Positions 2,558 to 64,000 of a stretch of 64,000 bases of DNA are shown here, piece by piece. The number at the start of each line of letters is the position of its first letter. Position 1 is the stretch's first letter. The translations under genes were made by a program, and so were the position numbers. The stretch comes from an uncultured Gammaproteobacteria bacterium. Lineage in GTDB: Bacteria; Patescibacteriota; Patescibacteriia; Veblenbacterales; UBA10138. Location of the stretch: positions 175,463 to 239,462 of the forward strand of contig CAYGDX010000001.1 of the NCBI GenBank assembly GCA_964348825.1. Direction: 5' to 3'. The notes beneath the pieces were generated by a model. It saw only the letters and a program-made list of their open reading frames with translations, searched no databases and was not told the DNA's origin.

Positions 2558-3484
2558 GTGCCTCAATCAACTCGAGAAATTAAGCGACGATTACGCTCCA
2601 TAAAAAATACGCGCCAAGTAACGCGCGCCATGGAGATGGTTTCGGCCGCCAAAATGCGGAAATCGGTACAAGCGGTGGTAGCGAGTCGCGCTTATGCGAG
2701 TTATGCTTGGGCGCTTGTTTCTGAGTTGTCGCTCCGAGTGGATCAGCGTCATCATCCGTTACTCGCTAAACGTGATAAAGTAAAAAATATTGGATTACTG
2801 GTGGTAAGTTCTAATCGCGGGCTGTGTGGCGGATTTAATTACCAATTAGCACAAAAGGTGGAAAAATATTATCAAAGTTTAGGTGAAAACGTATCAGTTA
2901 AATTAATTTCATTTGGCGTCAAAGCTCGCGACATATTGCTTCGTCAAGGTAAGGTGCTGGCAGCTGATTTCAGCAAACCTGATTTATTAAATGATGAAAC
3001 AATTATTAAGCCAATAGCCAAATTGTTGCTCGAGGAGTATTTATCTGGTAATTATGATAAAGTTGTATTGGCTTATACTGATTTTATTTCAGCGTTATCA
3101 CAAAAACCAAAAATTAAACAACTACTGCCAATTGAAAAAGTAATTGATAATGATTTGGGTGGTGTTAAGAATGCGTCAGTCGATACTACACCCTACACCC
3201 TACACCCTCACCCCTCAAACTACGAATACAAATTTGAACCAACACCTGCCACAGTATTAAATGAATTGTTGCCACGACTTTTGGGACTTCAAATTTACCA
3301 AGCGACTCTTGAATCAACTGCTTCAGAACATTCGGCACGCATGCTCGCTATGCGCAATGCTTCATCGGCCGCTCGTGATATGTTGGATGACTTAACTTTA
3401 ACTTTCAATCAAGCTCGACAAGCATCTATCACCTCGGAGCTGGCAGAAATTATTGGTGGACGAACAGCGATTGAAGCGGTTTAG
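2558..3484 (+). CDS. atpG: ATP synthase F1 gamma subunit
   Basis: 308 aa. Conserved N-terminus (MPQSTREIKRRLRSIKNTRQVTRAMEMVSAAKMRK) and C-terminus (…RQASITSELAEIIGG). Contains an in-frame tandem heptamer insertion at 3185..3219. Confidence 0.9.
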   Translation: MPQSTREIKRRLRSIKNTRQVTRAMEMVSAAKMRKSVQAVVASRAYASYAWALVSELSLRVDQRHHPLLAKRDKVKNIGLLVVSSNRGLCGGFNYQLAQKVEKYYQSLGENVSVKLISFGVKARDILLRQGKVLAADFSKPDLLNDETIIKPIAKLLLEEYLSGNYDKVVLAYTDFISALSQKPKIKQLLPIEKVIDNDLGGVKNASVDTTPYTLHPHPSNYEYKFEPTPATVLNELLPRLLGLQIYQATLESTASEHSARMLAMRNASSAARDMLDDLTLTFNQARQASITSELAEIIGGRTAIEAV

Positions 3485-3540
3485 TAAATTAAAATCCGAA
3501 ATTCGAATATCGAAATTCTAAATAAATTAATTTTATAAAA

Positions 3541-5023
<1,483 letters not shown>

Positions 5024-5261
5024 TGAGCCACTGACAACTAGTTCCTAGCCACTAATTTGTCTGCCCCGCGAAGCTTTAGCGAAGTGGGGTCATTGCGAGG
5101 TCCGCCAGCTGGCGGAGAGTGAGGCGAGCGACGTGGCAATCTATCACAAAAATCGAAATTTATTCATTAGAACACTAGAACATTTAAACATTATTGATAA
5201 AAATTTTTTGTTATTATGATCTAGTGATTTAGTGATCTAGTGATATTTCTTACTTAATCCA

Positions 5262-6201: not shown

Positions 6202-7011
6202 ATGCCTGTTCTACAAAACTTACGTACCGATGTAAATAAGTTAAAAAGTCCAGTCAAATCCAAGATTTTGCAAAGATTTTTTAAAACAGGTAAGGGTGAA
6301 TATGGAGCAGGGGATATATTTTTAGGATTAACTGTGCCAGAATCAAGATTAATTGCTAAAAAATACGCGTCTGTAATTAAAAATAGCGAATTAGAAAAAT
6401 TATTATCATCAAAGTATCATGAGGAGCGCTTGATTGCGCTCCTTATTTTAGTACAGAAGTTTAATTTGATATCAGCTGAGAGATTCCAATTGTCATCCCC
6501 GCGGAGGCGGGGATCCAGAAAAATAAGCCAGGTTAAATCAATTCTGGATTCCCACTTTCGTGGGAATGACAAAAACGCGGCTGTTAATCAGAAAAAAGTT
6601 GTGGATTTTTATTTAGCGCATCTCTCAGCCGTTAATAATTGGGATTTAGTTGATTTGTCGGCTGATAAAATTTTTGGACGATATTTGTTAGGCAAGTCAA
6701 CTAAAATTTTATACAAATTTATAAAGTCAAAAAATTTATGGGAGAGGCGGATTGCGATTGTATCTACTTTTGCTTTTATTAAACAAAATAAATTTACTGA
6801 CGCCTTACGTCTATCCAAAATATTATTAAAAGATAAACACGATTTAATTCACAAAGCGTGCGGTTGGATGCTCCGCGAAGTCGGCAAGCGTAATGTAGGC
6901 ATACTTTTAAAATTTTTAAATAAAAATAGTTCACAAATGCCTCGCACTATGCTCCGTTATGCAATTGAGCGACTACCGAAGAATAAAAAGAAATTTTATC
7001 TAGAAAAATAA
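6202..7011 (+). CDS. DNA alkylation repair enzyme (AlkD/AlkC-like HEAT-repeat protein) carrying a ~30-aa in-frame repeat-element insertion
   Basis: The N-terminus (…KLKSPVKSKILQRFFKTGKGEYGAGDIFLGLTVPESRLIAKKYAS…) and the C-terminal half (…WDLVDLSADKIFGRYLL…RRIAIVSTFAFIKQNKF…HDLIHKACGWMLREVGKRN) match the DNA_alkylation family. The central SSPRRRGSRKISQVKSILDSHFRGNDKNAAV is encoded by two inverted copies of the short palindromic repeat (6490..6520 and 6543..6572). Confidence 0.65.
   Translation: MPVLQNLRTDVNKLKSPVKSKILQRFFKTGKGEYGAGDIFLGLTVPESRLIAKKYASVIKNSELEKLLSSKYHEERLIALLILVQKFNLISAERFQLSSPRRRGSRKISQVKSILDSHFRGNDKNAAVNQKKVVDFYLAHLSAVNNWDLVDLSADKIFGRYLLGKSTKILYKFIKSKNLWERRIAIVSTFAFIKQNKFTDALRLSKILLKDKHDLIHKACGWMLREVGKRNVGILLKFLNKNSSQMPRTMLRYAIERLPKNKKKFYLEK
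6490..6572. repeat. Two inverted copies of the ~30 bp ATTCCC-N8-GGGAAT palindromic unit inserted in-frame in the alkylation-repair gene
   Basis: 6490..6520 reads tgtcatccccgcggaggcggggatccagaa. 6543..6572 reads ttctggattcccactttcgtgggaatgaca (reverse complement of the unit). Confidence 0.8.
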
Positions 7012-10174: not shown

Positions 10175-10213
10175 ATTTTAGTAAGAGTAAGAGCTTGGAG
10201 TAATATTAAATTT

Positions 10214-13719: not shown

Positions 13720-14112
13720 GTGTCCTTAAAGTATTATCTATGGTGGATGACAGCCGGTACACTCGGGGCCTGGGCTGTTTTGTGGTTGGTAATGAAGTAT
13801 TTGGATCCTCAAAGTACTGGATTTTTAGGGCTTCTACTTTTTTACGTGGCAGTTTTTTTAAGTGTTACCGGCACCTTAACCATTTTCGGGTTTACTTGGC
13901 GCATGTTCCGATTTAAAGATGAAGTATTATTTCGTCATATGACACAGGCCTTCAGACAAGGCGCAATGTTGGCTCTTGTGGTAGTAGGTGCTTTATTTTT
14001 GGAAGCACAAAAACTTTTGACTTGGTGGAATTTGGGATTACTTATTTTAGGATTAACACTTTTGGAATTTTTTTGGTTGTCGGTTAAGAGAATGCCGCCG
14101 GCAGACGTTTAG
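13720..14112 (+). CDS. Hypothetical membrane protein
   Basis: 130 aa with 3 to 4 hydrophobic helices. No recognisable family. Confidence 0.4.
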   Translation: MSLKYYLWWMTAGTLGAWAVLWLVMKYLDPQSTGFLGLLLFYVAVFLSVTGTLTIFGFTWRMFRFKDEVLFRHMTQAFRQGAMLALVVVGALFLEAQKLLTWWNLGLLILGLTLLEFFWLSVKRMPPADV

Positions 14113-14199
14113 AAACATTAGAACATTAAATCATTTGAACATTAGAGCAAATTAATTTGTTTAAATGTTCTGATGTTCTAGTGTTAAAGTGATAAAATT

Positions 14200-15242: not shown

Positions 15243-15403
15243 GTTACTTTTTATAAAGTAACACAAAATCTCCGCCTCGGTCTTCGGGTTTGAACAGTGC
15301 TCGTCAAACGAGCTGGCTCAAGCTATGCTAAGCGACCACAGACACGCTTGAGCCGGACGCTCGTTTGACTTCCGCTCTGTACAAACCCTACGACAGGGCG
15401 GCA
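15243..15403 (-). mobile_element. MITE-like repeat family 1, copy 1 (between pheS and pheT), inverted relative to the 37538 copy
   Basis: About 160 bp. The core is >80% identical to the copies at 37538, 54935 and 58508. It has ~30 bp imperfect terminal inverted repeats (cgccgccYtgtcgtagggtttgtacag … ctgttcaaacccgaagaccgaggcggcg) and a terminal palindromic hairpin (gttactttttataaagtaac). Confidence 0.65.
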
Positions 15404-15426
15404 CAACGACTAATTTAAATTACCTT

Positions 15427-17559: not shown

Positions 17560-17576
17560 GTTTAGTAAGAGTTTTT

Positions 17577-17665
17577 ACTAGAACATTAAATCACTAGATC
17601 ATAAAAACAAAAAATTCTTTATTAATAATGTTCTAATGTTCTAATGTTTTAGTGTTCTAGTGAAT
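17577..17665. repeat. Intergenic word repeat family A (tagaacat / cactagatcat), ~90 bp inverted-repeat element upstream of gyrB
   Basis: About 90% identical to 26627..26715 upstream of nusG. Diverged members lie at 838..905 (upstream of atpA), 5165..5250 (upstream of atpC) and 14105..14195 (upstream of pheS). Each is organised as ctagaacattaaa … tttaatgttctag inverted arms. Confidence 0.75.
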
Positions 17666-17701
17666 AAAATTTCGATATTCGGATTTTAATAAATTATTTA
17701 A

Positions 17702-19753
<2,052 letters not shown>

Positions 19754-20214: not shown

Positions 20215-20371
20215 AATTTAAATTTTTATACATACCAAAGTATTTGACAATTAATACTTGCTAAATCAAAAGTTAAAACTTAAAAGTCAAAATACGATTT
20301 ACAAATCAAAGATTTTTATTTTTTAGTTGTAGTTTTTAGTTTTTACTTTTGCGTTTTGAGTTAAGAACTAT

Positions 20372-23300
20372 ATGGAACGTGAATCTCCACCCATCAATCC
20401 ACAATATGAAAAATACCGCGTGGCGCTCGAGCGGTATTTGGCGCAGGCCTCACCCGAAGCTAAGGCCGAGGCCAAACGTTTGATTGAAGAAGAGAGAAGA
20501 TTGGAGCGGGTTGAAATTTTGCAAAAATTGCAAGATGGTCTTTTAGTGCTTAAAAATATTTCGGAAAACCAAAGAACTGATCATCAAAAATGGGTAGTTG
20601 GTGCTGTAGAAGGCGCTTTAGGTAAAATTGGTGATGATGGTAAATACGAAATAAAGGCAGGGGAAAATAGTCAACGCGAAGGCGTACCAGTGGATGGATT
20701 AATTAAAGAGTTAGAAGATTTTTGGCATCAAGCGGGCGCCCGGGCGCGCGAACTAGAAAACGAAGTACGCAGGTTAAGACAAAAACATAGTGATGTTTTA
20801 GCCAATTGGGTACGTGAGGGTGCGACCGATATTACTTCAGAGCATCAAATCAAAATGGCTTGGCAAGAGGTGGCGAGTGGTAGTTCAGTTGAAATAAAAA
20901 ATCAAGTAGATGCTACTCGCAAAACTTGGGCTACGGCGGGCGGTATAGGAGATGATTATGATCCAGCGACTGGTGAATATAAATTACAAAGCGGTGAAGC
21001 AATGCGTCAGTTGGTGGAAAATAAATTAGTTGGTGAAGTTAGGCAAGCCAAGAATAAAACTGATGCTTTAGGTGGCACGCGAGATTTTTTGATTGGTAAA
21101 AGTAAGGGATATTTTGAAGCACATCCAGAAATGAAAGGTGATAAGCAACATTGGCGCACCGAATACGAAGCTAAGTTTATTTCTCGTGACTTCCGTTCTA
21201 CTGGTGCAGTACAAACTGATTATGATAAAGCTATGGTAGAAATGTCGGCCCGGCGTGAATTAGTGCTACCGAATTTGAAAGTTGAATTACCAGAAGTTGT
21301 GCCCGTGGTAGTTGAACCAACTCCGGCGTCAGTTGAGCCAATATCACTTCAACCGGAAAAGCCAGAAGCCAAACGAGCGTATCTTATTAATGTTTCTGAA
21401 GTAGTTAAGCAGTATGCTCACCGACAAGCTGAATTACGTTTGAATGAATTACAAAAAGCTGAGGTGAAGGGTTTTTTCAAAACAATTGGCAGTGGCTTTA
21501 AGAAAATGTGGCTTAATTTAGGAGAAGAAGGGTATCGCCGTAAATTTGAGAAGGAAATTTTAACAGAAATTACAAGCAATAAAAATTTATTAGCTGAAAT
21601 TGAAGCACGTTTGGGTAAAAGTAAAAGTGCCACTACTTTAGAAAGCAAGGGATTGAATGAAAAGGTTTTAAGTGATGTAATTGATCGGTATCAAAAAGAA
21701 GTAGCCGAGGCTGAAGAAAAAGGTGAAGTAGTGGTGGATGCGCGGGTGAATCAAGAAGCCACAAAGTTATTTGTAGAATACGCCCAAGGTGCAATTACTA
21801 CGCGCGAGGAATTTGATAAACAAGTAGAAGAAAAAATTCTGCCACTGCTTGCTGGTCGTAAATTTACACTTGATTCAAATTACGCTAAGGAAGCTGAAAA
21901 AAATAAAAAAGATAAGATTGAAATGTATGCTAATAATTATTTTGAATTAGCTAAGAATTATAAAACATACATTGATAAAAAATTAGCTGAATACCCACCA
22001 GATCAGCGCGGCAAATTAATTGAACACTTGAAAGGCGAATTAGGTTTGGATTTGCAACTCGGGTTTATGCGTCGCGATTTAGAGGAAACTAAACCGCAAG
22101 AAGTTTTGAAATGGTACGACAAACTAGTTGATTTTACACAAAGTATTCCAATCATTAATAAAATTGTGGCTAATCCACTAGCTTATGGCATACTCGGCGG
22201 AGTAGCTGGTACTTTTGTGGGGCGTGGTGTTAAACGTTTTGCTGTTGGCAAGGGATTAATCGGTATTGCTGGTATGGCGCCGTGGCTCGCGCCGATAATT
22301 TTAGGTATGGGTTTTGGTGGAGCATATCTTTCGGCCCGTCGTTCACGTAATTTACAATATGATCGCGGTATGGATTTGCGTCGTAGAGCACTAGGCGCAG
22401 AAAGTGGTGGCGAGCGGACTGACAAAATGCGTGAATTTAATTATGGAATTAAACGCGCCGATGAAATTGTTTCGGCCTTGCAAGCGGTGCGAGCTAAATC
22501 TGGCTTAACTGATGCCGATAAAGAAATTTTAGGAGAAGTAATCGCCCGTTTTAAAGTAGAAAAAGAAAGATCAGTTGATTTAATTGGGGCTAATATTGAG
22601 GAAGGGTCTAAACACAAAACTAGAATTAAGAGTGTGACAGATGTTAAGTATTCATTAAAACAATCTTTAGAAAAATTTGGTTTGAAAGAATCAGATATTC
22701 AATCTTTTGTTGATAAACATTATAAAATTTTTATTGATGATATAGATAATAAAGACAAGTTGTTTAATAAATTTAGACATTGGGAAATGGGTAAAGCTGG
22801 CGTGATTGGCGCGACAATGGGTTTGGCCGGAGGTGCAGCTGGACAATATTTATGGGAACAAGGACAAGAATTATTTGGATTTACGCCAAAAACTGAAAGT
22901 GCCATTACTCATTTGATGCACTATATGAAAGGTGAGGGTAGTACCGCTTATGCTGGTGCGATGCAAGAAATTCCAATTGCGGCCTTAGGTGAAGCGGCGC
23001 ATCACCCCACTATTAAAATTCCACAAGGTTGGAGTTTATCCTCAGCGGGGGAAAGCAATCATTACGATTTAATTAATGCTGATGGTAATAAAGTTAGCGA
23101 TATAATTTTGAATTCCGACGGCACTTTGGATCAAGGAAGTTTGGATGAATTATCGGCTTCTGGTTTTAAAGTGAGTGATCAAGTGGAAACTGTTAGAACT
23201 AGTGTGCCAGATGCCACAGTACCAGCGGGCAAGGTGAATCCACTTGAGGCGTTTAAAGATCAGTTGGGTACACACCCACGAACTGATTGGCATGATGAAT

Positions 23301-26284
23301 TGGGTACGCGTTATAGTAAATTCTTTAATAAGTTGATTGAGTTTGAAGGTAAACAGCAAATGTTATATTTGGAAAAAGGTGCCGATGGCACAGTTTATAT
23401 TAATGCTGATAAAATTGCCCAGAATTTAGTAAAGAATGTTAATGAAGCGTTTGCTAAATTTGGCACTAACCCTGATGGAAGTCACGATTCTAAGTTACTA
23501 CATCTTAAAGAACAGTTAACAATGTGGGCTAGAAGTGGGGAGTTGCATAAACATTTGCAAGCCGCGATTATTCCAACCGAAAGTGCAAATCGGCAGGGCT
23601 TAAGTATGTTGGTTGATGGTGCGAGCGGTAATCATAAAATCGCTTTGCCACCGGGAATTTCTCGCCTTTTTACTACGCCAGAAAGTTTAAAGTATTTACA
23701 TCACCCTTTGCGTTATATAGAGTTGCGTCTTAATGGTCATACTTTAGCTACCAGTGTTGGCGGCGATATGCAAGCTGTAGCGCCTACGCCGATTGAAAAA
23801 ATTATAGAAACTCCGGTTCATCACACTGAAATTATCCCCACCGCGCATGACTTCGACGCACCACCAGTGTTACCATTTTATCCGAGGAAGGCGTTGGAGA
23901 GAACTCCAGAAAATCCTATTATATTGCCATATTATTTATATGGCGAAACAATGACACCAGAAAAAGAAGAACAAATAAGAAAACAATTATCAGAAACATT
24001 AAGGAGTAATCCCGACGCAAATTTGGATCATTATAAAGAAATTGAGGAGTATATTGGCAAATGGAATAGTGATTACCGTCAGGAAATAGAAAAGTTTGTG
24101 AGAGAAGTTGGCCCAATGAATGAAAAATGTCGTGTATCTGTTTGTATACCTGTAGCTGGTCACCAAGAGGGTAATAGTATTTACAAAACACTGGAAAATT
24201 ATTTAAATCAAACAATTGAGAAAGGAAATTTTGAAATAGTGTTATTTGTTAATCATCCTGAAAATGATGTAAATGGTAATAAAATTAGGCCGGATAATAC
24301 GCTGGAAGAAATAGAGCGTTTTAAAAAAGATTACCCGGGATTAAATGTTGTGACTATGTATAAATCTTTACCCTTGGAAGAGGTAAAGATTGGTTACATC
24401 AGGAAATTACTTAATGACACTGTATTAATGAGACATCATCAAAGAGGTAAGAGTGTTGAAGATTTAATAATTATTAGTAATAATGCTGATAATAAAGGTG
24501 TGGCGCCTGAATATATTAAAAATTTTGTTAATAAGTTTGATGAAAATTCTAATATTGATTCATATCTTGGTCAAGTGGATTGGGATCCAGAGGTTTATAT
24601 TAAAAATCCATTAGCTCATGTAGGGACTAGACTATTTCAATATATTAATATTCAAAATAGAAGCAAGGGTAGACACATTGAATCATCGGGTTGTAATTTT
24701 GCTCTAAGATCGAGTGTATATGCGGCAGTAGGTGGTTATGACGGTGAGGCGACACTAGGTGAAGATAATGAATTAGGTGCCGCAATTAAATATGGAAGAA
24801 AAAATGCCAGGGTTCACAAAGGTGTTGAATATGCTGGGGCAAGAGTTTCCAGAATATATTCATCCGCTAGAAGGATAGAGTATTCCCTAAAAAATGGGCT
24901 TTCACCTATAGAACAATGGGATAATGGTTTTAGTGCCTTTGATGATGAGGTTAGAAAAGTTAAATGGAATCTTAAGGGGAAGGCAATTGATTATGAAGAT
25001 GTGGATCAGGTAAAGTCTTTAATTAATGAGTTAGAAAATATTATTAATAGGACCATTAATAGAATGTCTAGTTGGGGTTTAGTATCCGACAGTCTAGTTT
25101 TTAAAAAATCTTTAGGTTGGTTGGGTATTAAATACGAAATGGTTGGCGACAAAAGAATAAAGATAATTAATGCTGATCGTTTGATTAGAGATTTAAAGGT
25201 GTATCAGAGTGATGGTTTATTGATAAGAGATTTGAAATTAGGTAAATCAGATGCCAAAGAAAAGTTGTCTAAATTGAAGAGTGAACGTAATATTGTTGAA
25301 AGTTCTGCATTAGAAAACAGATTAGTTGATTTTTACAAAAACGATCAGTTGATTTTGCATACTAATAGTGTTATTCCAAATCTAGACAAAATTAAAATCT
25401 CAGCAAATAAAAAAAAGGTGGGAGATATTTTGGTGGCTGATGATTTATCTATTTATAATGGAGATGATTCAAAAGTGTTAGCCGGTTATAAAGAGGGGGA
25501 AGATAAGGTTGTTATTCTTAAAGAAGTTGGAAGTAACACAATGATTAATCGTTTAGAAGAACAGGGCTGGTCAGGATATGGGTTAGAAGTGTCTAGTTTT
25601 GATAGTTATTTAAAGAAGAAGGGATTTTCAAATAAAAATGTTCTTTTAGCTGATGATGAGTTTTATGAAGTTAGTAAAAGTGGTTCACCTAAATTAGCAA
25701 GAATATATGAGCCGGCACTATCTGATTTACAAGGATTTTTAAATCGCGGTGGTAAATTAAGTATCAAAGAATCATTGTCAGTAATGATAAGAAGTTGTGA
25801 TGGAATCAATGGATTACATAAAAATAATATAGCTAATATAGATTTAGCACCATTAAACATTTTGGTTTTTAAAGATGGTATTAAAATTACTGATCTTGAC
25901 GGCTCCAGTATTTCTTCGGACGGTAATAAATTTATTAGAAAATCATTGGGATTAAATAGATTTATTTGTGCTCCAGAATTGTTTGGTAAGAATAATACTT
26001 TTGATAAGACAGTTGATGTATATGCGGCTGGTGCAAATTTATATTATCTTTTAACTGGTAAATGGCCTTATGATATTGATGCAGAGACAACAGGAATGAG
26101 TCGTGAAGAGGTCATGGATAAATATAAACCACTTCATATGTCTGGAAATATTGATATACCCTCTAACATACCAGTTGAATTGGGGCGTGTAATTAAAAAG
26201 GCCATGAGTCCTAATCCCACAGACAGATATCAAACTATCGAGGAATTAAATAATGAATTATTAAATATATACGAAAGTATTTAA
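20372..26284 (+). CDS. Giant multidomain membrane protein: N-terminal coiled-coil region, TM helices, GT2-family glycosyltransferase domain and C-terminal Hanks-type protein-kinase-like domain
   Basis: 1970 aa, uninterrupted.
- aa ~1-560 are Glu/Lys-rich coiled coil.
- Hydrophobic helices lie at about aa 598-653 (IVANPLAYGILGGVAGTFVG…GLIGIAGMAPWLAPIILGMGFGGAYL) and at about aa 807-826.
- aa ~1230-1520 have GT-A fold features (CRVSVCIPVAGHQEGNSI…EIVLFVNHPEND…SSGCNFALRSSVYAAVGGYDGEATLGEDNELG).
- aa ~1740-1970 carry kinase subdomains VIb to IX (NIDLAPLNIL as the catalytic loop, KITDLDGSS as a DFG-like motif, FICAPE as the APE motif, DVYAAGANLYYLLTGKWPY as subdomain IX).
- A hairpin plus T-run terminator follows at about 26371..26396. 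Confidence 0.8.
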   Translation: MERESPPINPQYEKYRVALERYLAQASPEAKAEAKRLIEEERRLERVEILQKLQDGLLVLKNISENQRTDHQKWVVGAVEGALGKIGDDGKYEIKAGENSQREGVPVDGLIKELEDFWHQAGARARELENEVRRLRQKHSDVLANWVREGATDITSEHQIKMAWQEVASGSSVEIKNQVDATRKTWATAGGIGDDYDPATGEYKLQSGEAMRQLVENKLVGEVRQAKNKTDALGGTRDFLIGKSKGYFEAHPEMKGDKQHWRTEYEAKFISRDFRSTGAVQTDYDKAMVEMSARRELVLPNLKVELPEVVPVVVEPTPASVEPISLQPEKPEAKRAYLINVSEVVKQYAHRQAELRLNELQKAEVKGFFKTIGSGFKKMWLNLGEEGYRRKFEKEILTEITSNKNLLAEIEARLGKSKSATTLESKGLNEKVLSDVIDRYQKEVAEAEEKGEVVVDARVNQEATKLFVEYAQGAITTREEFDKQVEEKILPLLAGRKFTLDSNYAKEAEKNKKDKIEMYANNYFELAKNYKTYIDKKLAEYPPDQRGKLIEHLKGELGLDLQLGFMRRDLEETKPQEVLKWYDKLVDFTQSIPIINKIVANPLAYGILGGVAGTFVGRGVKRFAVGKGLIGIAGMAPWLAPIILGMGFGGAYLSARRSRNLQYDRGMDLRRRALGAESGGERTDKMREFNYGIKRADEIVSALQAVRAKSGLTDADKEILGEVIARFKVEKERSVDLIGANIEEGSKHKTRIKSVTDVKYSLKQSLEKFGLKESDIQSFVDKHYKIFIDDIDNKDKLFNKFRHWEMGKAGVIGATMGLAGGAAGQYLWEQGQELFGFTPKTESAITHLMHYMKGEGSTAYAGAMQEIPIAALGEAAHHPTIKIPQGWSLSSAGESNHYDLINADGNKVSDIILNSDGTLDQGSLDELSASGFKVSDQVETVRTSVPDATVPAGKVNPLEAFKDQLGTHPRTDWHDELGTRYSKFFNKLIEFEGKQQMLYLEKGADGTVYINADKIAQNLVKNVNEAFAKFGTNPDGSHDSKLLHLKEQLTMWARSGELHKHLQAAIIPTESANRQGLSMLVDGASGNHKIALPPGISRLFTTPESLKYLHHPLRYIELRLNGHTLATSVGGDMQAVAPTPIEKIIETPVHHTEIIPTAHDFDAPPVLPFYPRKALERTPENPIILPYYLYGETMTPEKEEQIRKQLSETLRSNPDANLDHYKEIEEYIGKWNSDYRQEIEKFVREVGPMNEKCRVSVCIPVAGHQEGNSIYKTLENYLNQTIEKGNFEIVLFVNHPENDVNGNKIRPDNTLEEIERFKKDYPGLNVVTMYKSLPLEEVKIGYIRKLLNDTVLMRHHQRGKSVEDLIIISNNADNKGVAPEYIKNFVNKFDENSNIDSYLGQVDWDPEVYIKNPLAHVGTRLFQYINIQNRSKGRHIESSGCNFALRSSVYAAVGGYDGEATLGEDNELGAAIKYGRKNARVHKGVEYAGARVSRIYSSARRIEYSLKNGLSPIEQWDNGFSAFDDEVRKVKWNLKGKAIDYEDVDQVKSLINELENIINRTINRMSSWGLVSDSLVFKKSLGWLGIKYEMVGDKRIKIINADRLIRDLKVYQSDGLLIRDLKLGKSDAKEKLSKLKSERNIVESSALENRLVDFYKNDQLILHTNSVIPNLDKIKISANKKKVGDILVADDLSIYNGDDSKVLAGYKEGEDKVVILKEVGSNTMINRLEEQGWSGYGLEVSSFDSYLKKKGFSNKNVLLADDEFYEVSKSGSPKLARIYEPALSDLQGFLNRGGKLSIKESLSVMIRSCDGINGLHKNNIANIDLAPLNILVFKDGIKITDLDGSSISSDGNKFIRKSLGLNRFICAPELFGKNNTFDKTVDVYAAGANLYYLLTGKWPYDIDAETTGMSREEVMDKYKPLHMSGNIDIPSNIPVELGRVIKKAMSPNPTDRYQTIEELNNELLNIYESI

Positions 26285-26429: not shown

Positions 26430-26618
26430 ATGACAAACTTTTTAACCACTTACTTACGTGGGGCGTGGGAAGAGATGAAAAAAGTGGCTTGGCCCACCAA
26501 GCGTGAAATTACTCAACACACTATGTTGGTGATTGGTATTTCGGTGGTAGTGGCTTTGTTTTTAGGCGCGCTCGACTATATTTTTAACTTTGGGCTGGAA
26601 CAGTTGTTGTATAAGTAA
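26430..26618 (+). CDS. secE: Preprotein translocase subunit SecE
   Basis: 62 aa with a single TM helix, directly upstream of nusG. N-terminus MTNFLTTYLRGAWEEMKKVAWPTKRE is SecE-like. Confidence 0.8.
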   Translation: MTNFLTTYLRGAWEEMKKVAWPTKREITQHTMLVIGISVVVALFLGALDYIFNFGLEQLLYK

Positions 26619-26626
26619 TTAATATC

Positions 26627-26715
26627 ACTGGAACATTAGATCACTAGATCATAAGAACAAAAAATTCTTTATTAATAATGTTCTAATGTTTAAATGTTCT
26701 AGTGTTCTAATGAAT
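26627..26715. repeat. Intergenic word repeat family A copy upstream of nusG
   Basis: See 17577..17665. Confidence 0.75.
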
Positions 26716-26744
26716 AAGATTTAGAATTTAGGATTTAAACAACT

Positions 26745-27290: not shown

Positions 27291-27392
27291 ATTAAGCTTG
27301 AAGTTCGAAGTCATTAGTTCGTAGTTTTTTGCTTCTAAATACTATGACTTATAAGCTTTGAATTATTGACTAATAACTAATAACTAAATTTT

Positions 27393-27818: not shown

Positions 27819-28154
27819 AGCCCGAAAGTGAGTGAATAGTTTCACTCACGTGCCGTGAGGCGGGCAAGCCGATGCCTGTGGCCGGATTGCCCCGGGACGT
27901 AAATTTGGTATTAATTTAGAGCTCATGCGCCTAATGTCATTGCGAGTCCGAGCGTCAAGCACGAGGGCGAAGGAATCTACCAAAATCACTAATGGCTAAT
28001 TTCTAATTTCTAAAAAATTCCAATCCGCCAGCTGGCGGACCAATATCCAAAATTTAGTTATTAGACATTAGTCATTTTTAGAAATTATTTATTAGAGATT
28101 AGAAATTTATAGTTTTTAGGATTTTGACATTTGAAATTTTAATATAACTTAATC

Positions 28155-28205: not shown

Positions 28206-28889
28206 ATGTCTAAACGAGGTAAGAAATATGTTGAAGCTGTGAAATTGGTTCAAGTGGGCAAGGCCTATGAACCGAGTGAGGCTGTGAAGTTACTCAAGCA
28301 AATGCCAGCACGAAAGTTTGATATGTCGGTGGAAGTGCATATGAAGCTGGGGGTAGATGTAAAACAAGCTAATCAACAAGTGCGTGGTAGCACAGTATTA
28401 CCACACGGTTTGGGTAAAACCAAGCGCGTGGCAGTTTTTTGTGAAGATGCCAAAGCTTCGGAAGCCAAAGCCGCTGGAGCAACTATTGTTGGCGGTGAAG
28501 AATTAATTAAAGAAATTCAAACTACCGGCAAATGTGATTTTGATGTCGCAGTAGCCACGCCTGAAATTATGAAAAAAATGGCACCGATTGCAAAAATTTT
28601 AGGTCAAAAAGGTTTAATGCCTAATCCTAAAACTGAAACTATCACGAATGATATTGCTAAAACAGTAGAAAATTTGAACAAAGGTAAGGTGAGTTTTAAA
28701 ACCGATGCCACTGCTAATATTCACCAAATGATTGGTAAAATTTCGTTTGATGAGCAGAAAATTTTGGAAAATTTTAATGCCTTGCTTGAAGTAGTGCGCC
28801 GCGTTAAACCAGCTGGCGCTAAGGGTATTTATATTCGCAGTTGTACTTTAAATGTTTCAATGGGACCGGGGATTAGAGTGAAAGTATAG
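28206..28889 (+). CDS. rplA: 50S ribosomal protein L1
   Basis: 227 aa (…KFDMSVEVHMKLGVDVKQANQQVRGSTVLPHGLGK…). Confidence 0.95.
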   Translation: MSKRGKKYVEAVKLVQVGKAYEPSEAVKLLKQMPARKFDMSVEVHMKLGVDVKQANQQVRGSTVLPHGLGKTKRVAVFCEDAKASEAKAAGATIVGGEELIKEIQTTGKCDFDVAVATPEIMKKMAPIAKILGQKGLMPNPKTETITNDIAKTVENLNKGKVSFKTDATANIHQMIGKISFDEQKILENFNALLEVVRRVKPAGAKGIYIRSCTLNVSMGPGIRVKV

Positions 28890-28920
28890 TTGGCAAATAG
28901 CTAATAGCAAATGGCAAATA

Positions 28921-28950
28921 GATAGGCGTCATTCCCGCGTAGGCGGGAAT
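28921..28950 (+). repeat. Short palindromic unit (gtcattcccgcgtaggcgggaatctagaa) just downstream of rplA
   Basis: One of about 10 copies. Others lie at 13651..13680 (inverted), 54889..54922, 56503..56531, 57344..57375, 58213..58278 (with an internal insertion), 62143..62172, 63643..63672 (inverted) and two inside 6490..6572. The stem is ATTCCCGC/GCGGGAAT with a variable 4-5 nt loop and compensatory changes (cccac/gtggg). Confidence 0.8.
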
Positions 28951-28954
28951 CTAG

Positions 28955-29085
28955 AAACTAAAATTTCAAATGACAAATGTCAAATTTCAAATCAAATCCA
29001 AAATTATAATGTTAAAATTTTTAATCATTTAGTCATTTGACATTGATTTGTTATTTGGATTTTGACATTTGAAATTAAATACTTC
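28955..29085. repeat. Intergenic word repeat family D (atttcaaatgtcaaat / tttgacatttgaaat) upstream of dcd
   Basis: Built from ttgacatttgaaat words in both orientations. Related copies lie at 28120..28140, 62225..62285 and 63560..63600. Confidence 0.7.
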
Positions 29086-37437: not shown

Positions 37438-37537
37438 TACCCAGTTTTTTGCGAGGCAAAACTGGGTTTATTTTTATTTTGTCATTTCCATGTCATTCGA
37501 CATCAAGCTCATAACCTAGAGGAAAACGGGGAACCGT

Positions 37538-37698
37538 GCCGCCCTGTCGTAGGGTTTGTACAGAGCGCAAGGCAGACGAACGTCCGACTCGCCCGTGTTT
37601 GTGGTCGCTTGGCATAGGGCGAGTCAGTTCGTCTGACGAGCACTGTTCAAACCTGGAGACCGAGGCGGCGATTTTGTGTTACTTTATAAAAAGTAACA
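37538..37698 (+). mobile_element. MITE-like repeat family 1, copy 2 (between the Cys-rich ORF and miaA)
   Basis: Same element. It generates the spurious ORF 37536..37781, whose translation MPPCRRVCTERKA… recurs in the 58508 copy. Confidence 0.65.
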
Positions 37699-37806
37699 AA
37701 ATAAAAAATAATCTTAATTCCCACCATAGCGGGGCAAGTTGGATTCTCGTTTCTCTCCTTCGTTATAAAGTTACGGAGTGACAAGTTGTGAATACGGCAG
37801 TGCAGT

Positions 37807-42293: not shown

Positions 42294-42478
42294 CCAAGTT
42301 TCCAGCCTTCGCTTTAGAGCTATGGCGGACTCTTAAAATTGTCTGTACGTTTAGGTTTGCCTAAGCAAACTTCGCTTATTATAGCGATTAATGGTTGGTA
42401 GTCATTACGATAGCGTACGTTATTAGATTATATTTAAAGAGAATATTTGTCAATTTTTAGAAGCTGGAAGATAGAATA

Positions 42479-42594
42479 CCCGCCTGCCGAAGCTATTTAA
42501 CTTAGTTACGGCAAGGTGATTATTAAGCTTAAGTTAATTATTGAAAGTTATAAAATTAAGTTGCGGCTAGCGGCGGGCAGGTAGAAACTAGAAT
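42479..42594 (+). mobile_element. MITE-like repeat family 2, standalone copy
   Basis: About 115 bp, AT-rich interior, GC-rich imperfectly inverted termini (cccgcctgccgaagct … gctagcggcgggcaggtag). A second copy is nested at 60205..60312. Confidence 0.5.
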
Positions 42595-42696
42595 TTGAAC
42601 TGTACCTAATCTAGATTCTATATTCTAAATTCTAGATTCAAAACAATTTTTATTTCACTGAATACAAAGTATTTACTTATAAATTAAATTAGTAAA

Positions 42697-43860: not shown

Positions 43861-44004
43861 AAAATTTAAAATCCTAAATTCTAATATCTAAATCCTAAAA
43901 AATTATAAACCATAATGATCAAAAATTCTTATAGACTAGGTATTAGATATTTTTAGAAATTAGTGATTAGATATTATTAATTTTATCACACTTAGTATTT
44001 TTCG

Positions 44005-48553: not shown

Positions 48554-48689
48554 AGTAGTTAAATATAATCTATAGTTTAGAATAGCATATTTTTATAAAA
48601 GAGGCGAGGGTGGTATAATATAGTTAGTAAAAATTCGAATATCGAAATTCGAAATACTAAAGTTTCGGATTTAGGATTTTAATTTTATT

Positions 48690-49559: not shown

Positions 49560-49560
49560 T

Positions 49561-49638
49561 GATGATTAGCCACTAGTAACTAGTTCCTAGCCACTAGATA
49601 AAACTAGTGGCTATTGGCTAGGAACTAATGGGTAAATT
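49561..49638. repeat. Long palindromic element (agccactagtaactagttcctagccactag … ctagtggctattggctaggaactaat) between the 48690 ORF and ftsW/rodA
   Basis: A near-perfect ~30 bp inverted repeat. A half copy (agccactgacaactagttcctagccactaat) lies at 5030..5060, downstream of atpD. Confidence 0.6.
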
Positions 49639-49678
49639 GGAATCGTTTTGTAATTCGGATTTAGAATTTTGAATAACC

Positions 49679-50797: not shown

Positions 50798-50960
50798 TTT
50801 TAAAATCCGAAATCCGAATATCGAAATCAAAAATTTAAAAATTTTAATATTTAAATTAGTGATAGACATCATTGCTTGACATTTGTGGATAACCGGGTGT
50901 AAGCTGTAGCCAAATAAAATAAATACAAATTACAAATCACAAACTATTTTGGAGTAACGA

Positions 50961-53564: not shown

Positions 53565-53620
53565 AATAATCTAGATTTTAACTTATAATCAGAGTTAATA
53601 TCAAATTAGTGCCGCCCTTG

Positions 53621-53813
53621 TCTCCGGGTTTGTACAGAGCGCCTGCCTACCGGTAGGCAGGCAAGGCAAATGAGCGTTCGGTCAGGCCGTGCTGTGGTCG
53701 CTGTGCATAGGCCGAGCCAGCTCGTTTGACGAGCACTGTTCAAACCCGAAGACCGACCTGCCTACCGGCAGGCAGGGGCGGCGACTCTTGCACCACTTCT
53801 CTAGAGAAGTGGT
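53621..53813 (+). mobile_element. MITE-like repeat family 1, copy 3 (prmC-prfA spacer), subfamily with a ...cttctctagagaagtggt terminal hairpin and two cctgcctaccggtaggcagg palindromes
   Basis: Terminal inverted repeats and core shared with the other copies. It carries the 20-bp palindrome cctgcctaccggtaggcagg at about 53648 and 53760. That palindrome also occurs alone at about 56640. Confidence 0.6.
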
Positions 53814-54934: not shown

Positions 54935-55101
54935 TTTTGTCACTTCTTTAATAGAAGTAACCAAGAATCGCCGCCTCGGTCTTCGGGTTTGAACAGTGCT
55001 CGTCAAACGAGCTGGTTCGGGCTATGCACAACTACCACAGACACGCCCGAACCGGACGCTCATTTGCCTTGCGCTCTGTACAAACCCTACGACAGGGCGG
55101 C
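54935..55101 (-). mobile_element. MITE-like repeat family 1, copy 4 (upstream of prfA)
   Basis: Inverted orientation. Preceded by an acttct-ttaat-agaagt hairpin. Generates the spurious ORF 54929..55111. Confidence 0.6.
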
Positions 55102-55300
55102 ACTGTTTTAGGAATTGGGATTTTTAATAATTTGGATTTATTTAGGATTTAGGGTTTTAGATTTAGGATTTTTAGAAACAAAACTCTTTCTAAACCCTTG
55201 TCCTTACTAATTAACTCTACCATATTTATAGTGATAAAAGCGAAACCAAATACAATACTCCCGCTCGCAATTAAAAAAAGGAGCGGGAGTAGAATAGTGC

Positions 55301-56491: not shown

Positions 56492-56502
56492 TTTTATAAC
56501 TG

Positions 56503-56531
56503 TCATTCCCGCGGAGGCGGGAATCCAGAAA
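56503..56531 (+). repeat. Short palindromic unit downstream of rpsB
   Basis: tgtcattcccgcggaggcgggaatccagaa. Confidence 0.8.
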
Positions 56532-56710
56532 CATAAATCCTAAATCCTAATATCTAAACTCTAAATAAATCCCAATAACTAAAATCCAAAAAAGTTTTAA
56601 ACATTTGAATTTTAGATTTATTTCGGATTTCGCCTGCCTGCCGGTAGGCAGGGATTTAGTGCTTCGGATTTAAACACCATTGATTTAAAATTATAAATTT
56701 AAAATTTAAT

Positions 56711-57325: not shown

Positions 57326-57478
57326 GAGTCTAGAGTAAGAGTATTGTGTCATTCCCGCGTAGGTGGGAAGCTATTAATTTAAAAATTAAAAATCAAAATG
57401 GAAAATGACAATGTAAAATGAAAAATTTTAAATTTTAATTTGTCATTTTTATTTTTGATATTTACATTTTGATTTTTT

Positions 57479-58186: not shown

Positions 58187-58212
58187 TTTTTGATAAATTG
58201 TTACATTATAAA

Positions 58213-58278
58213 TGTCATCCTCGCGGCTTGTCCTGCCGTAGCTTGTAGCGAAGGAGGAAGGCGGGAATCCAGAAGACT
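58213..58278 (+). repeat. Short palindromic unit variant with a ~30 bp internal insertion, downstream of pyrH
   Basis: tgtcatcctcgcgg…[cttgtcctgccgtagcttgtagcgaaggaggaa]…ggcgggaatccagaag. Confidence 0.6.
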
Positions 58279-58507
58279 AAGCGATTTTTGTTATTAAATT
58301 ATTTTCTTAAAAGCGTTCATTTTGAACCGCTTTGTTTTTTATGTTATTATTAAACCATAATATAAAATAAATTGCCCTTTTAGTTAAAATCGGTCCGGAA
58401 GACCAAACCCTGCCTTAAGCATATTTGCCAATCTTACAACGTCGTAGTGGATTAGTTGATTGAGCATTTTTGTTACCTCGCAGGGTTTTTTATTTAACCA
58501 AAAGTTT

Positions 58508-58669
58508 TGCCGCCCTGTCGTAGGGTTTGTACAGAGCGCAAGGCAAATGAGCGTCCGGCTTGGGCGTGTCTGTGGTCGCTTCGCATAGCCCAAGCCAGCT
58601 CGTTTGACGAGCACTGTTCAAATCCGAAGACCGAGGCGGCGATTTTATGTTACTTTATAAAAAGTAACA
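58508..58669 (+). mobile_element. MITE-like repeat family 1, copy 5 (downstream of pyrH)
   Basis: About 90% identical to copy 2, including the gttactttataaaaagtaac terminal hairpin. Generates the spurious ORFs 58507..58734 and 58384..58614. Confidence 0.65.
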
Positions 58670-58834
58670 AAAGAAGAGTTATCCACACCCTTGACATAAA
58701 AAACAGCCGGAGTATATTATGTATTATCCACTAAAGTTAGGAAAAAGAACGACCTATCTGAAACATTTACAAATAATCGTAATGAGTGGAATAATCAACA
58801 ATCGTTCTTTAACAAATAATATAGGAGATTTGTT

Positions 58835-59698: not shown

Positions 59699-60066
59699 AA
59701 TCATTTCGGTGACTTTACCATTAAGCGCGGTTTAAAATTTTTTATAGGGTAAAGTCAAATTGCTGGCTCGGGATGTGTTGGTTGTCGTTATATTTAAAAT
59801 TCTACACAGTCAAAACGACATATGACGTTAGTTAATTAATAACGCATTCCGGGCTGGTCTTATTAAATCACAAACAAAAATTACACATCACATTGTGAAG
59901 GGAACAAAAATTATGATTTTTTCTTCATTACTACTGTCATTAGTTCCTTATCATCCGGCGTCTGCAAAAAATTCTGCCAGTAGTCGGTCACCCTAAATAT
60001 TTTTCACCATTTAGATGTGTGATAGATTAGCGATAGCGGTATCTCCAAAATTTTCTAAAACATATC

Positions 60067-60105
60067 AGCGGGTGTTGTTCACAAAGAACCACCCGTCTTT
60101 TTTTA
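60067..60105 (+). terminator. Intrinsic terminator-like hairpin upstream of MITE copy 6
   Basis: gcgggtg…cacccgt followed by T7. Confidence 0.45.
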
Positions 60106-60124
60106 CTTAAAATAATTCAAACAA

Positions 60125-60390
60125 CTGCCGCCTTGTCGTAGGGTTTGTACAGAGCGCAAGTCAAACGAGCGTCCGGCTTGGACGTGTCTGTGGTCGCTCG
60201 GCACCCGCCTGCCGAAGCTGTTTCCCCAAGTTAACGTACGATGATTAGTATACTTTAGTTCATTATTAGAAATACTGAAACCAAGTTGGGCTAGCGGCGG
60301 GCAGGTAGTCCAAGCCAGCTCATTTGACGAGCACTGTTCAAACCCTATACCCGCGCGGCGACTCTTGCACAACTTCTCTAGAGAAGTGGT
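60125..60390 (+). mobile_element. MITE-like repeat family 1, copy 6, carrying a nested family-2 element
   Basis: The family-1 left arm (60125..60204) and right arm (60313..60390) are interrupted by about 108 bp. The interrupting piece runs cccgcctgccgaagct … gctagcggcgggcaggtag, the same termini as the standalone element at 42479..42594. Confidence 0.6.
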
Positions 60391-60796
60391 AAAAATACTA
60401 TTTTGACCAATTTTTACTTTAGTGTTAAGTTTAAATCAAATTGCACCTAAATAAAATGAGCTTAAATTGATATCAACTCCCACCTCAAAAACATCTCTAA
60501 AAATGTTACGATGGATTTTATCGTACACATTAATTGCTATGGTAATGGATTAGTACGTGCTTTCTCCTTAGGAGATTGTTGACTCGGCCTGCCTATATCA
60601 CAATATAGTGAAAATTATCACGGCAATTTGTCAATTTTTGTTCAAACGAACCCAGCTACTAAGAGTTTAATTATATTTGTTAGCAAGATTAGAATTAGTT
60701 AGAGTAAGATACTTGGGGGAGGTGAAGCCCGGTACTGTGCTATCAAGCTCTAGTACTGGGCGAAGCCAAAATGCTCTTTCAAATTAAATTTATTTT

Positions 60797-60838
60797 CAAG
60801 CCAATTTGTAAGTTCTGCAAATTGGCTTCGTTTTTTAA
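60797..60838 (+). terminator. Intrinsic terminator in the non-coding island, possible 3' end of a small RNA
   Basis: aagccaatttg-taagttctg-caaattggctt followed by cgtttttt. Confidence 0.5.
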
Positions 60839-61103
60839 AATTATTACAAAATGTAACGATCGTTACATTTTGTAATAATTTAAAATTAATAATGACTATA
60901 AATTTGTTTAGCTTAAACAAAGACGGCAATTAATTTATCTCATCATTTCTAGTGTGTCGTAGCAGTTGGGATTTGCCCCTAGCACTTAACTACCGGTAAC
61001 CCCTTGAGTTTAGTCTATCTAGATAGGCAAAATTTTGAGGGTCTTTTTTTATTCTGTAGAAATAGTATAATTAGATTGTATTTACCCTTAATTTCACTAG
61101 CTT

Positions 61104-62120: not shown

Positions 62121-62142
62121 CGAATGGCAAATAGCACGATTG

Positions 62143-62172
62143 TCATTCCCGCGAAAGTGGGAATCTAGAAAT
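62143..62172 (+). repeat. Short palindromic unit downstream of gap
   Basis: ttgtcattcccgcgaaagtgggaatctagaaa. Confidence 0.8.
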
Positions 62173-62294
62173 AAATCGTTTAAATCCTAAATCCGAATAT
62201 CGAAATCCGAAATAAATCACAAATTCTAAAATTTAGTCATTTGGATTTGATTTGACATTTGGATTTTGAAATTTGAAATTATACAACTCAGGTT

Positions 62295-63467: not shown

Positions 63468-63629
63468 AATTAAATATTAATTTATATTTAAATCCATAAT
63501 GTCTAAATCCTAATATCTAATTTCTAAACTCTAAATAAATTCAAAATATATAAATCAGAAAAGTTTAAATTTTAGTCATTTGGATTTTAAAATTTATTTA
63601 GGATTTAGTGCTTCGGATTTCGGATTTAA

Positions 63630-64000
<371 letters not shown>

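Follow-up and report, generated by a model that had tools for sequence, protein, structure and literature searches.

Palindromic cassettes of tandem 7- and 8-nt units in the intercistronic spacers of a Patescibacteria genome segment

The 64,000-nt stretch considered here (hereafter the window; contig CAYGDX010000001.1 of assembly GCA_964348825.1, positions 175,463 to 239,462) is a 37% GC, gene-dense segment of a genome from the Patescibacteria, or Candidate Phyla Radiation (CPR), whose spacers hold a set of AT-rich, imperfectly palindromic cassettes made of short tandem arrays of 7- or 8-nt units. We regard these cassettes as a real and non-random feature that is best placed as a variant of known repeat classes. 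More specifically, we put at roughly 60% the probability that they constitute a family of palindromes akin to miniature inverted-repeat transposable elements (MITEs) and repetitive extragenic palindromes (REPs), composed of heptameric simple-sequence arrays, that was spread by duplication and slippage and subsequently decayed. A preliminary description, drawn from the letters alone, had depicted the intergenic regions as built almost entirely from a few families of recurring words (A to F). Every one of these families was recovered where it had been placed or a few bases off, but "almost entirely" turned out to be an overstatement: the cassettes add up to 2762 bp, i.e., 27% of the intergenic DNA, the remainder containing canonical TTGACA-N16–18-TAnAAT sites, terminators with a GC hairpin and T-run, and several GC-rich repeat families.

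What the preliminary description had missed is that the words are the units of short tandem arrays, i.e., heptamers in families B to F (e.g., AAATCCG-AAATTCG-AATATCG-AAATTCT) and octamers in family A (CTAGAACA-TTAAATCA-CTAGATCA), with at least six word families in 64 kb and with units that differ within one array. Self-identity of the intergenic DNA was maximal at lags of 7, 8, 14, and 21 nt (amounting to 0.48 at lag 7 inside cassettes), while coding DNA displayed a 3-nt period only, and no excess of arrays was found at lags of 4–6 or 9–12 nt. Periodic arrays numbered 27 in the 9.7 kb of intergenic DNA, vs. 0.33 expected from shuffles (maximum of 2), and three in the 54 kb of coding DNA of the window; in array-rich genomes, 19 arrays were present in 258 kb of coding DNA. 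The word AATCCGAA occurred 16 times in intergenic DNA (vs. 0.36 expected) and seven times in coding DNA, with about five of the latter forming a single array within gyrB. Equal word frequency in coding DNA, which according to the preliminary description would have pointed to plain AT-rich slippage, was thus not seen, and the intergenic enrichment was strong. Since the coding frequency is not equal, plain slippage everywhere is not the answer, and slippage filtered by selection in coding DNA is possible. The earlier contention that this is not random low-complexity DNA holds, in that the vocabulary is structured, multi-copy, and arranged in inverted pairs.

The focal cassette (c6; family A, octamers CTAGAACA/TTAAATCA, 17570–17670) lies between the pheT stop codon (17559) and the gyrB ATG (17717). 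Its counterpart in the secE/nusG spacer (c8; family A, 26615–26720) matches it without gaps at 82 of 89 positions (17577–17665 vs. 26627–26715), so that the previously reported identity of about 90% is in fact 92%, and the similarity continues to ca. 147 nt at 83% identity. The arms of the focal hairpin (17574–17609 and 17629–17664) are 81% complementary, and the region from 17560 to 17716 is predicted to fold as RNA with –29.7 kcal/mol on the plus strand (z of –3.1) and –30.3 kcal/mol on the minus strand (z of –4.05), so that the two strands are on a par. In the typical element, an A/C-rich array, a loop of 10–35 nt, and an inverted T/G-rich array form an imperfect hairpin of 60–150 nt, with arms of 28–54 nt that are 70–83% complementary, each arm being composed of three to five tandem and slightly degenerate units of 7 nt (or 8 nt in family A). 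The cassettes are 17–31% GC, and most of their folds beat shuffles in stability (z of –2 to –6). In paired cassettes of the window, the 5′ arm is always A/C-rich and the 3′ arm always T/G-rich. The elements also recur as families: family A counts five copies with homologous loops, families B and C at least nine arrays with the common unit order AAATCCN-AAATYCN-AATATCN, and a composite, in which an array hairpin comes after a GTCATTCCCGCG...GGGAATC hairpin, is found at four junctions.

With respect to location, the cassettes had been assigned to gene starts, and many of them do precede an ATG. Nevertheless, they fill the whole stop-to-start spacer and are therefore equally situated at gene ends, at 6–140 nt from the stop codon and 0–98 nt from the ATG, neither distance being fixed. 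The spacers concerned are co-directional ones within atpH-A-G-D-C, secE-nusG-rplK-rplA, rpsB-tsf-pyrH, and gap-pgk-eno, which are operons in most bacteria.

For comparison, 80 metagenomic loci encoding a NusG 71–92% identical to that of the window were retrieved, of which a part was inspected at these junctions, and arrays were also sought in 80 AtpD loci from all bacteria. The secE-nusG spacer measures 5–12 nt in most inspected relatives vs. 127 nt in the window, the nusG-rplK spacer 5–15 nt in most inspected relatives vs. 102 nt, and the atp junctions roughly 10–60 nt in several relatives vs. 103–238 nt. Because the junctions are short in relatives, the cassettes are lineage-specific additions to transcription units and not ancestral control regions. 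Some relatives carry a nusG-rplK cassette of quite different units (i.e., CTAGCNA in L083, GCTGATA in L108, and C-rich/G-rich units in L105), with L108 having an additional GCGGATG cassette at secE-nusG, while L115 carries family B at nusG-rplK. Three further loci (L088, L090, and L094) display a T-rich heptamer array before the ATG only, which in L088 spans 40 nt vs. 5 nt in its relative L086. The TAGCCAC family is present at nusG-rplK in L083, and in the window both upstream of rodA and downstream of atpD. Among the AtpD loci, arrays at lags 7/8, but not at lags 4–6 or 9–12, are frequent only in a Patescibacteria subset (L022, L010, L026, L017, and L032) and absent or rare in most others, including most non-CPR loci; the array-rich NusG loci are L123, L143, L151, and L140. 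Across ca. 160 loci, the arrays comprise 123 different canonical units, and array occurrence is a property of the genome and not of the gene. Finally, two contigs of other assemblies, identical to the window, terminate inside cassettes, as expected for genome-wide repeats.

The preliminary description had taken the cassettes for modular promoter/operator units, or for binding-site arrays to which an abundant DNA-binding protein would attach. In a fuller form of this reading, that protein would be a nucleoid protein or regulator, and every gene would have a control region of its own. This would fit elements that are palindromic, repeated, AT-rich like UP elements, and placed before many start codons, but we deem it highly improbable. 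With a threshold of at least 10 of 12 consensus matches and a –35/–10 spacing of 16–18 nt, sigma-70-like sites occur at 0.37/kb in cassettes (a single one, in antisense) vs. 2.2/kb in other intergenic DNA, the former value being indistinguishable from the coding background of 0.28/kb. The –35 hexamer TTGACA, also cited in support, is indeed present in family D (at 28124, 29062, and 62252), yet it lacks a –10 partner that would bring it to 10/12 at 16–18 nt; no sense-strand cassette site attained 10/12, and the best family D sites reached 9/12. The cassettes thus show no promoter signals above background.

Other observations on the same reading concern the spacers and the units. In array-rich genomes, arrays occupy 41 of 158 spacers between co-directional genes, but only 2 of 15 convergent and 1 of 17 divergent ones, a trend that runs against a promoter element, although the differences are not statistically significant. 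The 5–15 nt that secE-nusG and nusG-rplK measure in relatives also speak against control regions at these junctions, and the 123 distinct units argue against one sequence-specific binder, even though the conservation of family B strings across genomes (see below) could reflect a binding site. Moreover, with a period of 7–8 bp, neighbouring sites would point to different sides of the helix. In the only divergent spacer with a cassette (48554–48689), a strong promoter-like site is situated upstream of cassette c14, which would place c14 in a 5′ untranslated region. Neither do the cassettes resemble intrinsic terminators (GC-rich stem of 5–12 bp plus U run), as their AT-rich stems are almost without G-C pairs; terminator-like sites (30786, 39764, 51489, and 52668) were found where convergent genes end and in other spacers, and near cassettes only as embedded GC palindromes (28043 and 57352).

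Since the cassettes are located inside operons and fill the spacers, they must be transcribed, and they could be selected intercistronic RNA hairpins that serve RNase III processing, stabilise cistrons, or act as a switch that couples or uncouples translation. The atpHA mRNA structure of E. coli is a known precedent for intercistronic hairpins. This alternative, which we consider unlikely, agrees with the above-mentioned fold stability of most cassettes, with stems of 30–55 aligned positions (generally known to be long enough for RNase III), and with the single architecture common to several unrelated word families. In 162 intergenic hairpins, each read in the orientation of the gene strand, however, G·U and A·C oppositions on the sense strand were equal in number (290 vs. 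299; 159 vs. 165 in the AT-rich subset), and in 6 of 16 cassettes the fold of the antisense strand was as good as or better than that of the sense strand. When all left arms were set against all right arms, complementarity tracked the family and not the copy, with left arms of family A scoring 33 on average against their own right arm vs. 42 against those of other copies. Taken as a majority consensus, the five copies of family A give a 39-pair hairpin that is 90% Watson-Crick, compared to 66–75% for the individual copies, and where the two youngest copies differ, the changes do not compensate each other. This pattern is what independent decay of copies of a near-perfect palindromic ancestor would be expected to produce, and not what selection for pairing would. 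In addition, stem distances to stop and start codons vary, and close relatives lack cassettes at the compared junctions.

Alternatively, arrays near start codons could be single-strand RNA platforms for S1, cold-shock proteins, or a CsrA-like factor, as proposed by MacGregor for the TAACTGA heptamers of Beggiatoaceae (PMC4679880); the inverted array would then be an anti-sequence. T-rich arrays end 0–20 nt before many ATGs, and the T-rich array stands alone before the ATG in L088, L090, and L094. Shine-Dalgarno-like sequences are rare, at 14/56 genes of the window under a lax definition, as is the case in Beggiatoaceae (PMC4679880). Part of these 14 matches are chance ones, within "aggattt" repeat words. 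We nevertheless judge such platforms very unlikely, since the sense-strand composition of the arrays in relatives is unbiased (A>T in 37, T>A in 31), the words vary too much to suit a specific binder, and the hairpin would sequester most arrays. The absence of a Shine-Dalgarno sequence is also unlinked to arrays (Fisher p = 1). The notion that a cassette replaces the Shine-Dalgarno site was rejected as well, such sites being rare everywhere and unrelated to arrays.

Three more candidates were examined. DNA uptake sequences such as those of Neisseria occur as inverted pairs, but uptake requires one dominant word, and with many words here instead this candidate was dismissed. A LexA site (Cheo box), suggested by GAAC...GTTC in family A, was discarded on reading the sequence, which lacks the 4-nt spacing that such a box requires, and because none of the genes downstream is an SOS gene. 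Guide-RNA arrays, either of the CRISPR type or of the tandem interspaced guide RNA (TIGR)-Tas type, would combine short repeats with a Patescibacterium host, and TIGR arrays, which have been reported in CPR bacteria, are hard to recognise (PMC12045711). Such an array consists of two alternating 8–12-nt repeats and two 9-nt spacers in 36-nt units, iterated 5–15 times beside a Nop-domain Tas gene (PMC12045711). The arrays of the window, in contrast, have a period of 7/8 nt without a peak at lag 36 (self-identity of 0.311), are single, dispersed, and self-complementary, and no Nop-domain protein was detected among the ca. 55 window open reading frames (ORFs) scanned against Pfam/NCBIfam, so that we give this candidate next to no credence.

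Heptamers are known to be over-represented among bacterial simple sequence repeats, for which slippage related to the polymerase footprint has been proposed (PMC4679880; PMC4692102, citing Mrazek 2007), and intergenic heptameric repeats include the short tandemly repeated repetitive (STRR) and GGGGAYT sequences of cyanobacteria (Nostoc and Calothrix) and GGGAATC of Xanthomonas, partly in inverted pairs (PMC4692102). Like STRRs and other long simple sequence repeats (LSSRs), which have tandem 7-nt units, intergenic enrichment, variability between close relatives, and sometimes inverted pairs forming stem-loops (PMC4692102), the cassettes consist of tandem units within the 5–11-nt range in numbers beyond chance and are enriched in non-coding DNA. 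They depart from this class in that a few dominant units in near-perfect arrays are missing, the only perfect array being (AAATCCG)5 inside gyrB. Whereas those genomes have one or few units, often in long near-perfect arrays, here at least 6–8 families are present per genome, with arrays of three to five degenerate units, most arrays are paired into 60–150-nt palindromes that recur as whole elements, and the host has a reduced CPR genome. The TAACTGA direct repeats of Beggiatoaceae, which also occur in some Cyanobacteria and Bacteroidetes (MacGregor 2015, PMC4679880), similarly form heptamer arrays a few nt from start codons, including those of ribosomal-protein genes, with Shine-Dalgarno sequences rare downstream and no functional pattern among the downstream genes. 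They are, however, one conserved heptamer in 169 direct sets vs. one indirect set (PMC4679880), while many words, inverted pairing as the rule, and no sense-strand bias characterise the window.

MITEs, REPs, and bacterial interspersed mosaic elements (BIMEs) are likewise small, non-coding, palindromic, and multi-copy, reside in intergenic or intercistronic DNA, are co-transcribed, receive nested insertions, and decay from a consensus (reviewed in PMC3184786). The cassettes match the MITE description of a short non-coding inverted-repeat element in many dispersed copies (five for family A, at least nine arrays for B/C, and four for the composite), yet neither a target-site duplication nor a transposase or REP-associated tyrosine transposase (RAYT) was seen in the window. 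They do not have the 20–40-nt GC-rich palindrome, conserved head, and RAYT link of REPs/BIMEs, being AT-rich, longer, and made of tandem units, with no RAYT in the window. The literature that was searched contained no report of such repeats in Patescibacteria/CPR.

Under the reading that we favour, replication slippage would generate the units and alter their number, whole palindromes would be copied to new junctions in a MITE- or REP-like manner, and small GC hairpin elements would insert into or beside them. Copies would then decay in place. Coding DNA would be cleared of them, while the intercistronic spacers of a genome that barely uses Shine-Dalgarno sites would tolerate them and let them persist. 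Once transcribed, they would be long AU-rich hairpins in polycistronic mRNA, any influence on processing or translation being a side effect. As the elements must be transcribed, consequences at the RNA level (for instance, cleavage by RNase III or translational uncoupling) are plausible, but the present evidence favours neutral or selfish DNA.

Two arrays reside in genes. A perfect (AAATCCG)×5 array, made of a family B word, lies in frame within gyrB (17717–19753) at 19411–19467, in its variable part, and GyrB as a whole exceeds the family profile by ca. 37 residues. Inside atpG (3178–3220), a C-rich heptamer array (CTACACC ×3) encodes TPYTLHPHPS, and AtpG is ca. 18 residues longer than the family profile. 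Together, (AAATCCG)5 in gyrB and (CTACACC)3 in atpG indicate that slippage-type expansion is active, as does the above-mentioned 40-nt array of L088.

Several findings weigh against a decaying, transposon-like palindrome family. Family B strings of 24–41 nt are 88–100% identical between genomes with ca. 78% NusG identity, which needs recent transfer, continued transposition, or sequence constraint. No transposase or RAYT gene was found among the scanned window ORFs, and no target-site duplication or shared direct repeat at the five family A flanks, the latter being a weak negative as element boundaries are uncertain. No presence/absence polymorphism was found between near-identical strains, the compared contigs being 100% identical to the window. 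The consensus-palindrome result is clear for family A only, with ambiguous alignments for B/C and E. Lastly, the uniform arm polarity could also reflect function, though common descent can explain it because reverse-complementing a palindrome keeps its polarity. A rule of A-rich left and T-rich right arms as a sign of function was set aside, given that descent explains it and relatives show other polarities.

The cassettes could also represent a Patescibacteria-wide class of intercistronic elements with a host function that spread without a recognisable transposase, in which case the identity of the family B strings and the arm polarity would signify constraint and not descent. Such elements might punctuate operon transcripts through cleavage of the RNase III type, or recruit an RNA- or DNA-binding factor in genomes with very little use of Shine-Dalgarno sites, and they might spread, for instance, by slippage and template switching between arms; we hold this to be decidedly unlikely.

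As to what MITE/REP-like heptamer palindromes would mean in this host, CPR/Patescibacteria genomes are usually described as streamlined and repeat-poor, but here a single kind of repeat takes up about a quarter of the intergenic DNA and almost all junctions within the atp, nusG-rplKA, rpsB-tsf-pyrH, and gap-pgk-eno clusters. Contigs that end inside cassettes indicate that these repeats probably fragment metagenome assemblies, and operon prediction by intergenic distance would wrongly split the operons that bear them. The poorly understood bacterial excess of heptameric repeats also gains, with the cassettes, a new lineage and a new form that is paired and multi-family, and a mechanistic link between 7-nt slippage and the growth of palindromes could be looked for here in a compact system. 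An effect of the cassettes on mRNA processing or translation, should there be one, would be relevant to the organisation of gene expression where regulators are few.

With regard to the setting of the window, its AtpD is 84–75% identical to proteins of Patescibacteria, Magasanikbacteria, and "Saccharibacteria" metagenome-assembled genomes. The gene set includes atpH, atpA, atpG, atpD, atpC, pheS, pheT, gyrB, nusG, rplK, rplA, dcd, and pgk, and further rpsB, tsf, pyrH, gap, rodA, dnaE, thrS, and prfA; the gene names used in the preliminary description were right. The 64-kb window contains no tRNAs, and a search of it against Rfam gave no matches at gathering thresholds and only weak spurious ones at E<1.

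The atp cluster is preceded by cassette c0 (family B, unit AAATYCG, 285–345) upstream of atpH. The atpH/atpA spacer holds c1 (family A, 826–905) and a lone heptamer array (ATTCTTA/ATTCGTA..., 917–955) that ends at the atpA ATG, and the atpA/atpG spacer holds c2, a weak A-rich/T-rich palindrome (2441–2557). A lone family B left-type array (AAATCCG AAATTCG AATATCG AAATTCT, 3485–3545) adjoins the atpG stop codon and is followed by c3b (family E, unit CAAAANN, 3545–3655), which ends 8 nt before the atpD ATG, while c4 (family A, 5160–5250) is situated upstream of atpC. Further on, c5 (family A, 14105–14199) occupies the spacer before pheS, and a lone T-rich B-type array (atttcgatattcggattt, 17665–17692), a right-arm remnant, separates the focal cassette from gyrB. 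Cassette c7 (family E, 20255–20371) precedes a giant ORF (20372–26284) of 1970 amino acids (aa), in which a C-terminal Ser/Thr protein kinase (residues 1784–1959) is the sole recognisable domain.

In the nusG region, c8 is followed by a lone C-type right-arm array (atttagaatttaggattt, 26715–26744) immediately 5′ of the nusG ATG. The nusG/rplK spacer contains c9 (units AAGYTCG / TAACTAA, 27291–27392), the rplK/rplA spacer c10 (unit CTAATTT, 27975–28145, with the GC palindrome CCGCCAGCTGGCGG at its centre), and the rplA/dcd spacer the composite c11 (28885–29085), made up of a family F array, the GTCATTCCCGCG...GGGAATC hairpin, and a family D hairpin. Two elements are located between minus-strand genes, i.e., array c12 (unit TTCTAGA/TTCTAAA, 42590–42660) and cassette c13 (family C, 43861–44004), the latter downstream of dnaE. 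Cassette c14 (family B, 48620–48689) lies between its strong promoter-like site (48592–48619) and an ATG at 48690. Around rodA, c15 (unit TAGCCAC/TAGTAAC, 49560–49678), which includes a B-type right-arm remnant, is positioned upstream, and a lone family B left-type array (50798–50870) adjoins the stop codon.

The remaining elements follow further along the window. C-type T/G-rich arrays (atttaggattt, 55105–55190) are found beside a copy of a 150-nt GC-rich repeat. The rpsB/tsf spacer carries composite c18 (56492–56710), i.e., a GC hairpin and a C/B hairpin with a 20-nt GC palindrome inserted in its right arm at 56633, and the tsf/pyrH spacer composite c19 (57326–57478), in which a GC hairpin accompanies a hairpin of AAAATCA/AAATGAC units. 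In the gap/pgk spacer, composite c20 (62100–62294) comprises a family F array overlapping the gap stop codon, a GC hairpin, a B left arm, and a D right arm; in the pgk/eno spacer, cassette c21 (63468–63700) joins a C left arm and a B right arm to an inverted GC hairpin.

GC palindromes are accordingly nested inside (56633) or located beside (28928, 56502, 57348, and 62142) cassettes. Small dispersed repeats are reportedly nested in the heptamer arrays of Nostoc in a similar manner, with short GC-rich palindromes in or beside the arrays; the phylum is a different one, and the sequences are unrelated. A GC hairpin of ca. 30 nt, with the sequence GTCATTCCCGCGnnGGCGGGAATCyAGAA, is present about nine times in the window, often fused 5′ of an AT-rich cassette, in forward (6488, 28928, 54888, 56502, 57348, and 62142) or inverted orientation (6536, 13643, and 63634), one pair being situated inside the ORF at 6202–7011. 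It also occurs in L010, L132, L133, L143, and L154, and is 93–97% identical to copies on other Patescibacteria contigs. In form, this GTCATTCCCGCG hairpin is REP-like and closer to REPs than the cassettes are. Two other palindromes, CCTGCCTRCCGGyAGGCAGG (53642, 53757, and 56633), which flanks one copy of the 150-nt repeat and is inserted in the right arm of c18, and CCGCCAGCTGGCGG (5102 and 28025), located downstream of atpD and at the centre of c10, are nested insertions of very small elements.

The GC-rich repeat of ca. 150 nt has six copies in 64 kb, two on the plus strand (15256–15404 and 54955–55103) and four in the opposite orientation (37537–37704, 53600–53790, 58508–58675, and 60126–60354), usually beside a GTTACTTTnTAAAGTAAC hairpin. 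Its flanks are highly conserved, and an internal 9-bp helix shows compensatory changes between copies, with six pairs changed on both sides; a search of Rfam returned no match to it. A palindromic MITE and a structured RNA in multiple copies are both conceivable identities for this repeat. A separate 86-nt repeat (42478–42563 and 60203–60288; 73% identity) has its second copy inside one of the 150-nt copies. The tract from 59699 to 61103 spans 1.4 kb without an ORF of more than 90 aa and contains repeat copies and a perfect 26-nt palindrome (60834–60885); together with 58187–58834, it makes up a non-coding tract of unusual size for a CPR genome. Two TTATCCAC DnaA-box-like motifs (58679 and 58724) flank the promoter-like site that ranks best in the window (TTGACA-16-TATATT at 58691), which is situated upstream of an ORF (58835) of unknown function. 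Finally, the word TAGTAAGAG / GTAAGAG directly follows stop codons at 10175–10213, 17560–17575, and 57326–57345, and in one relative (L085) it forms a heptamer array at the nusG-rplK junction.

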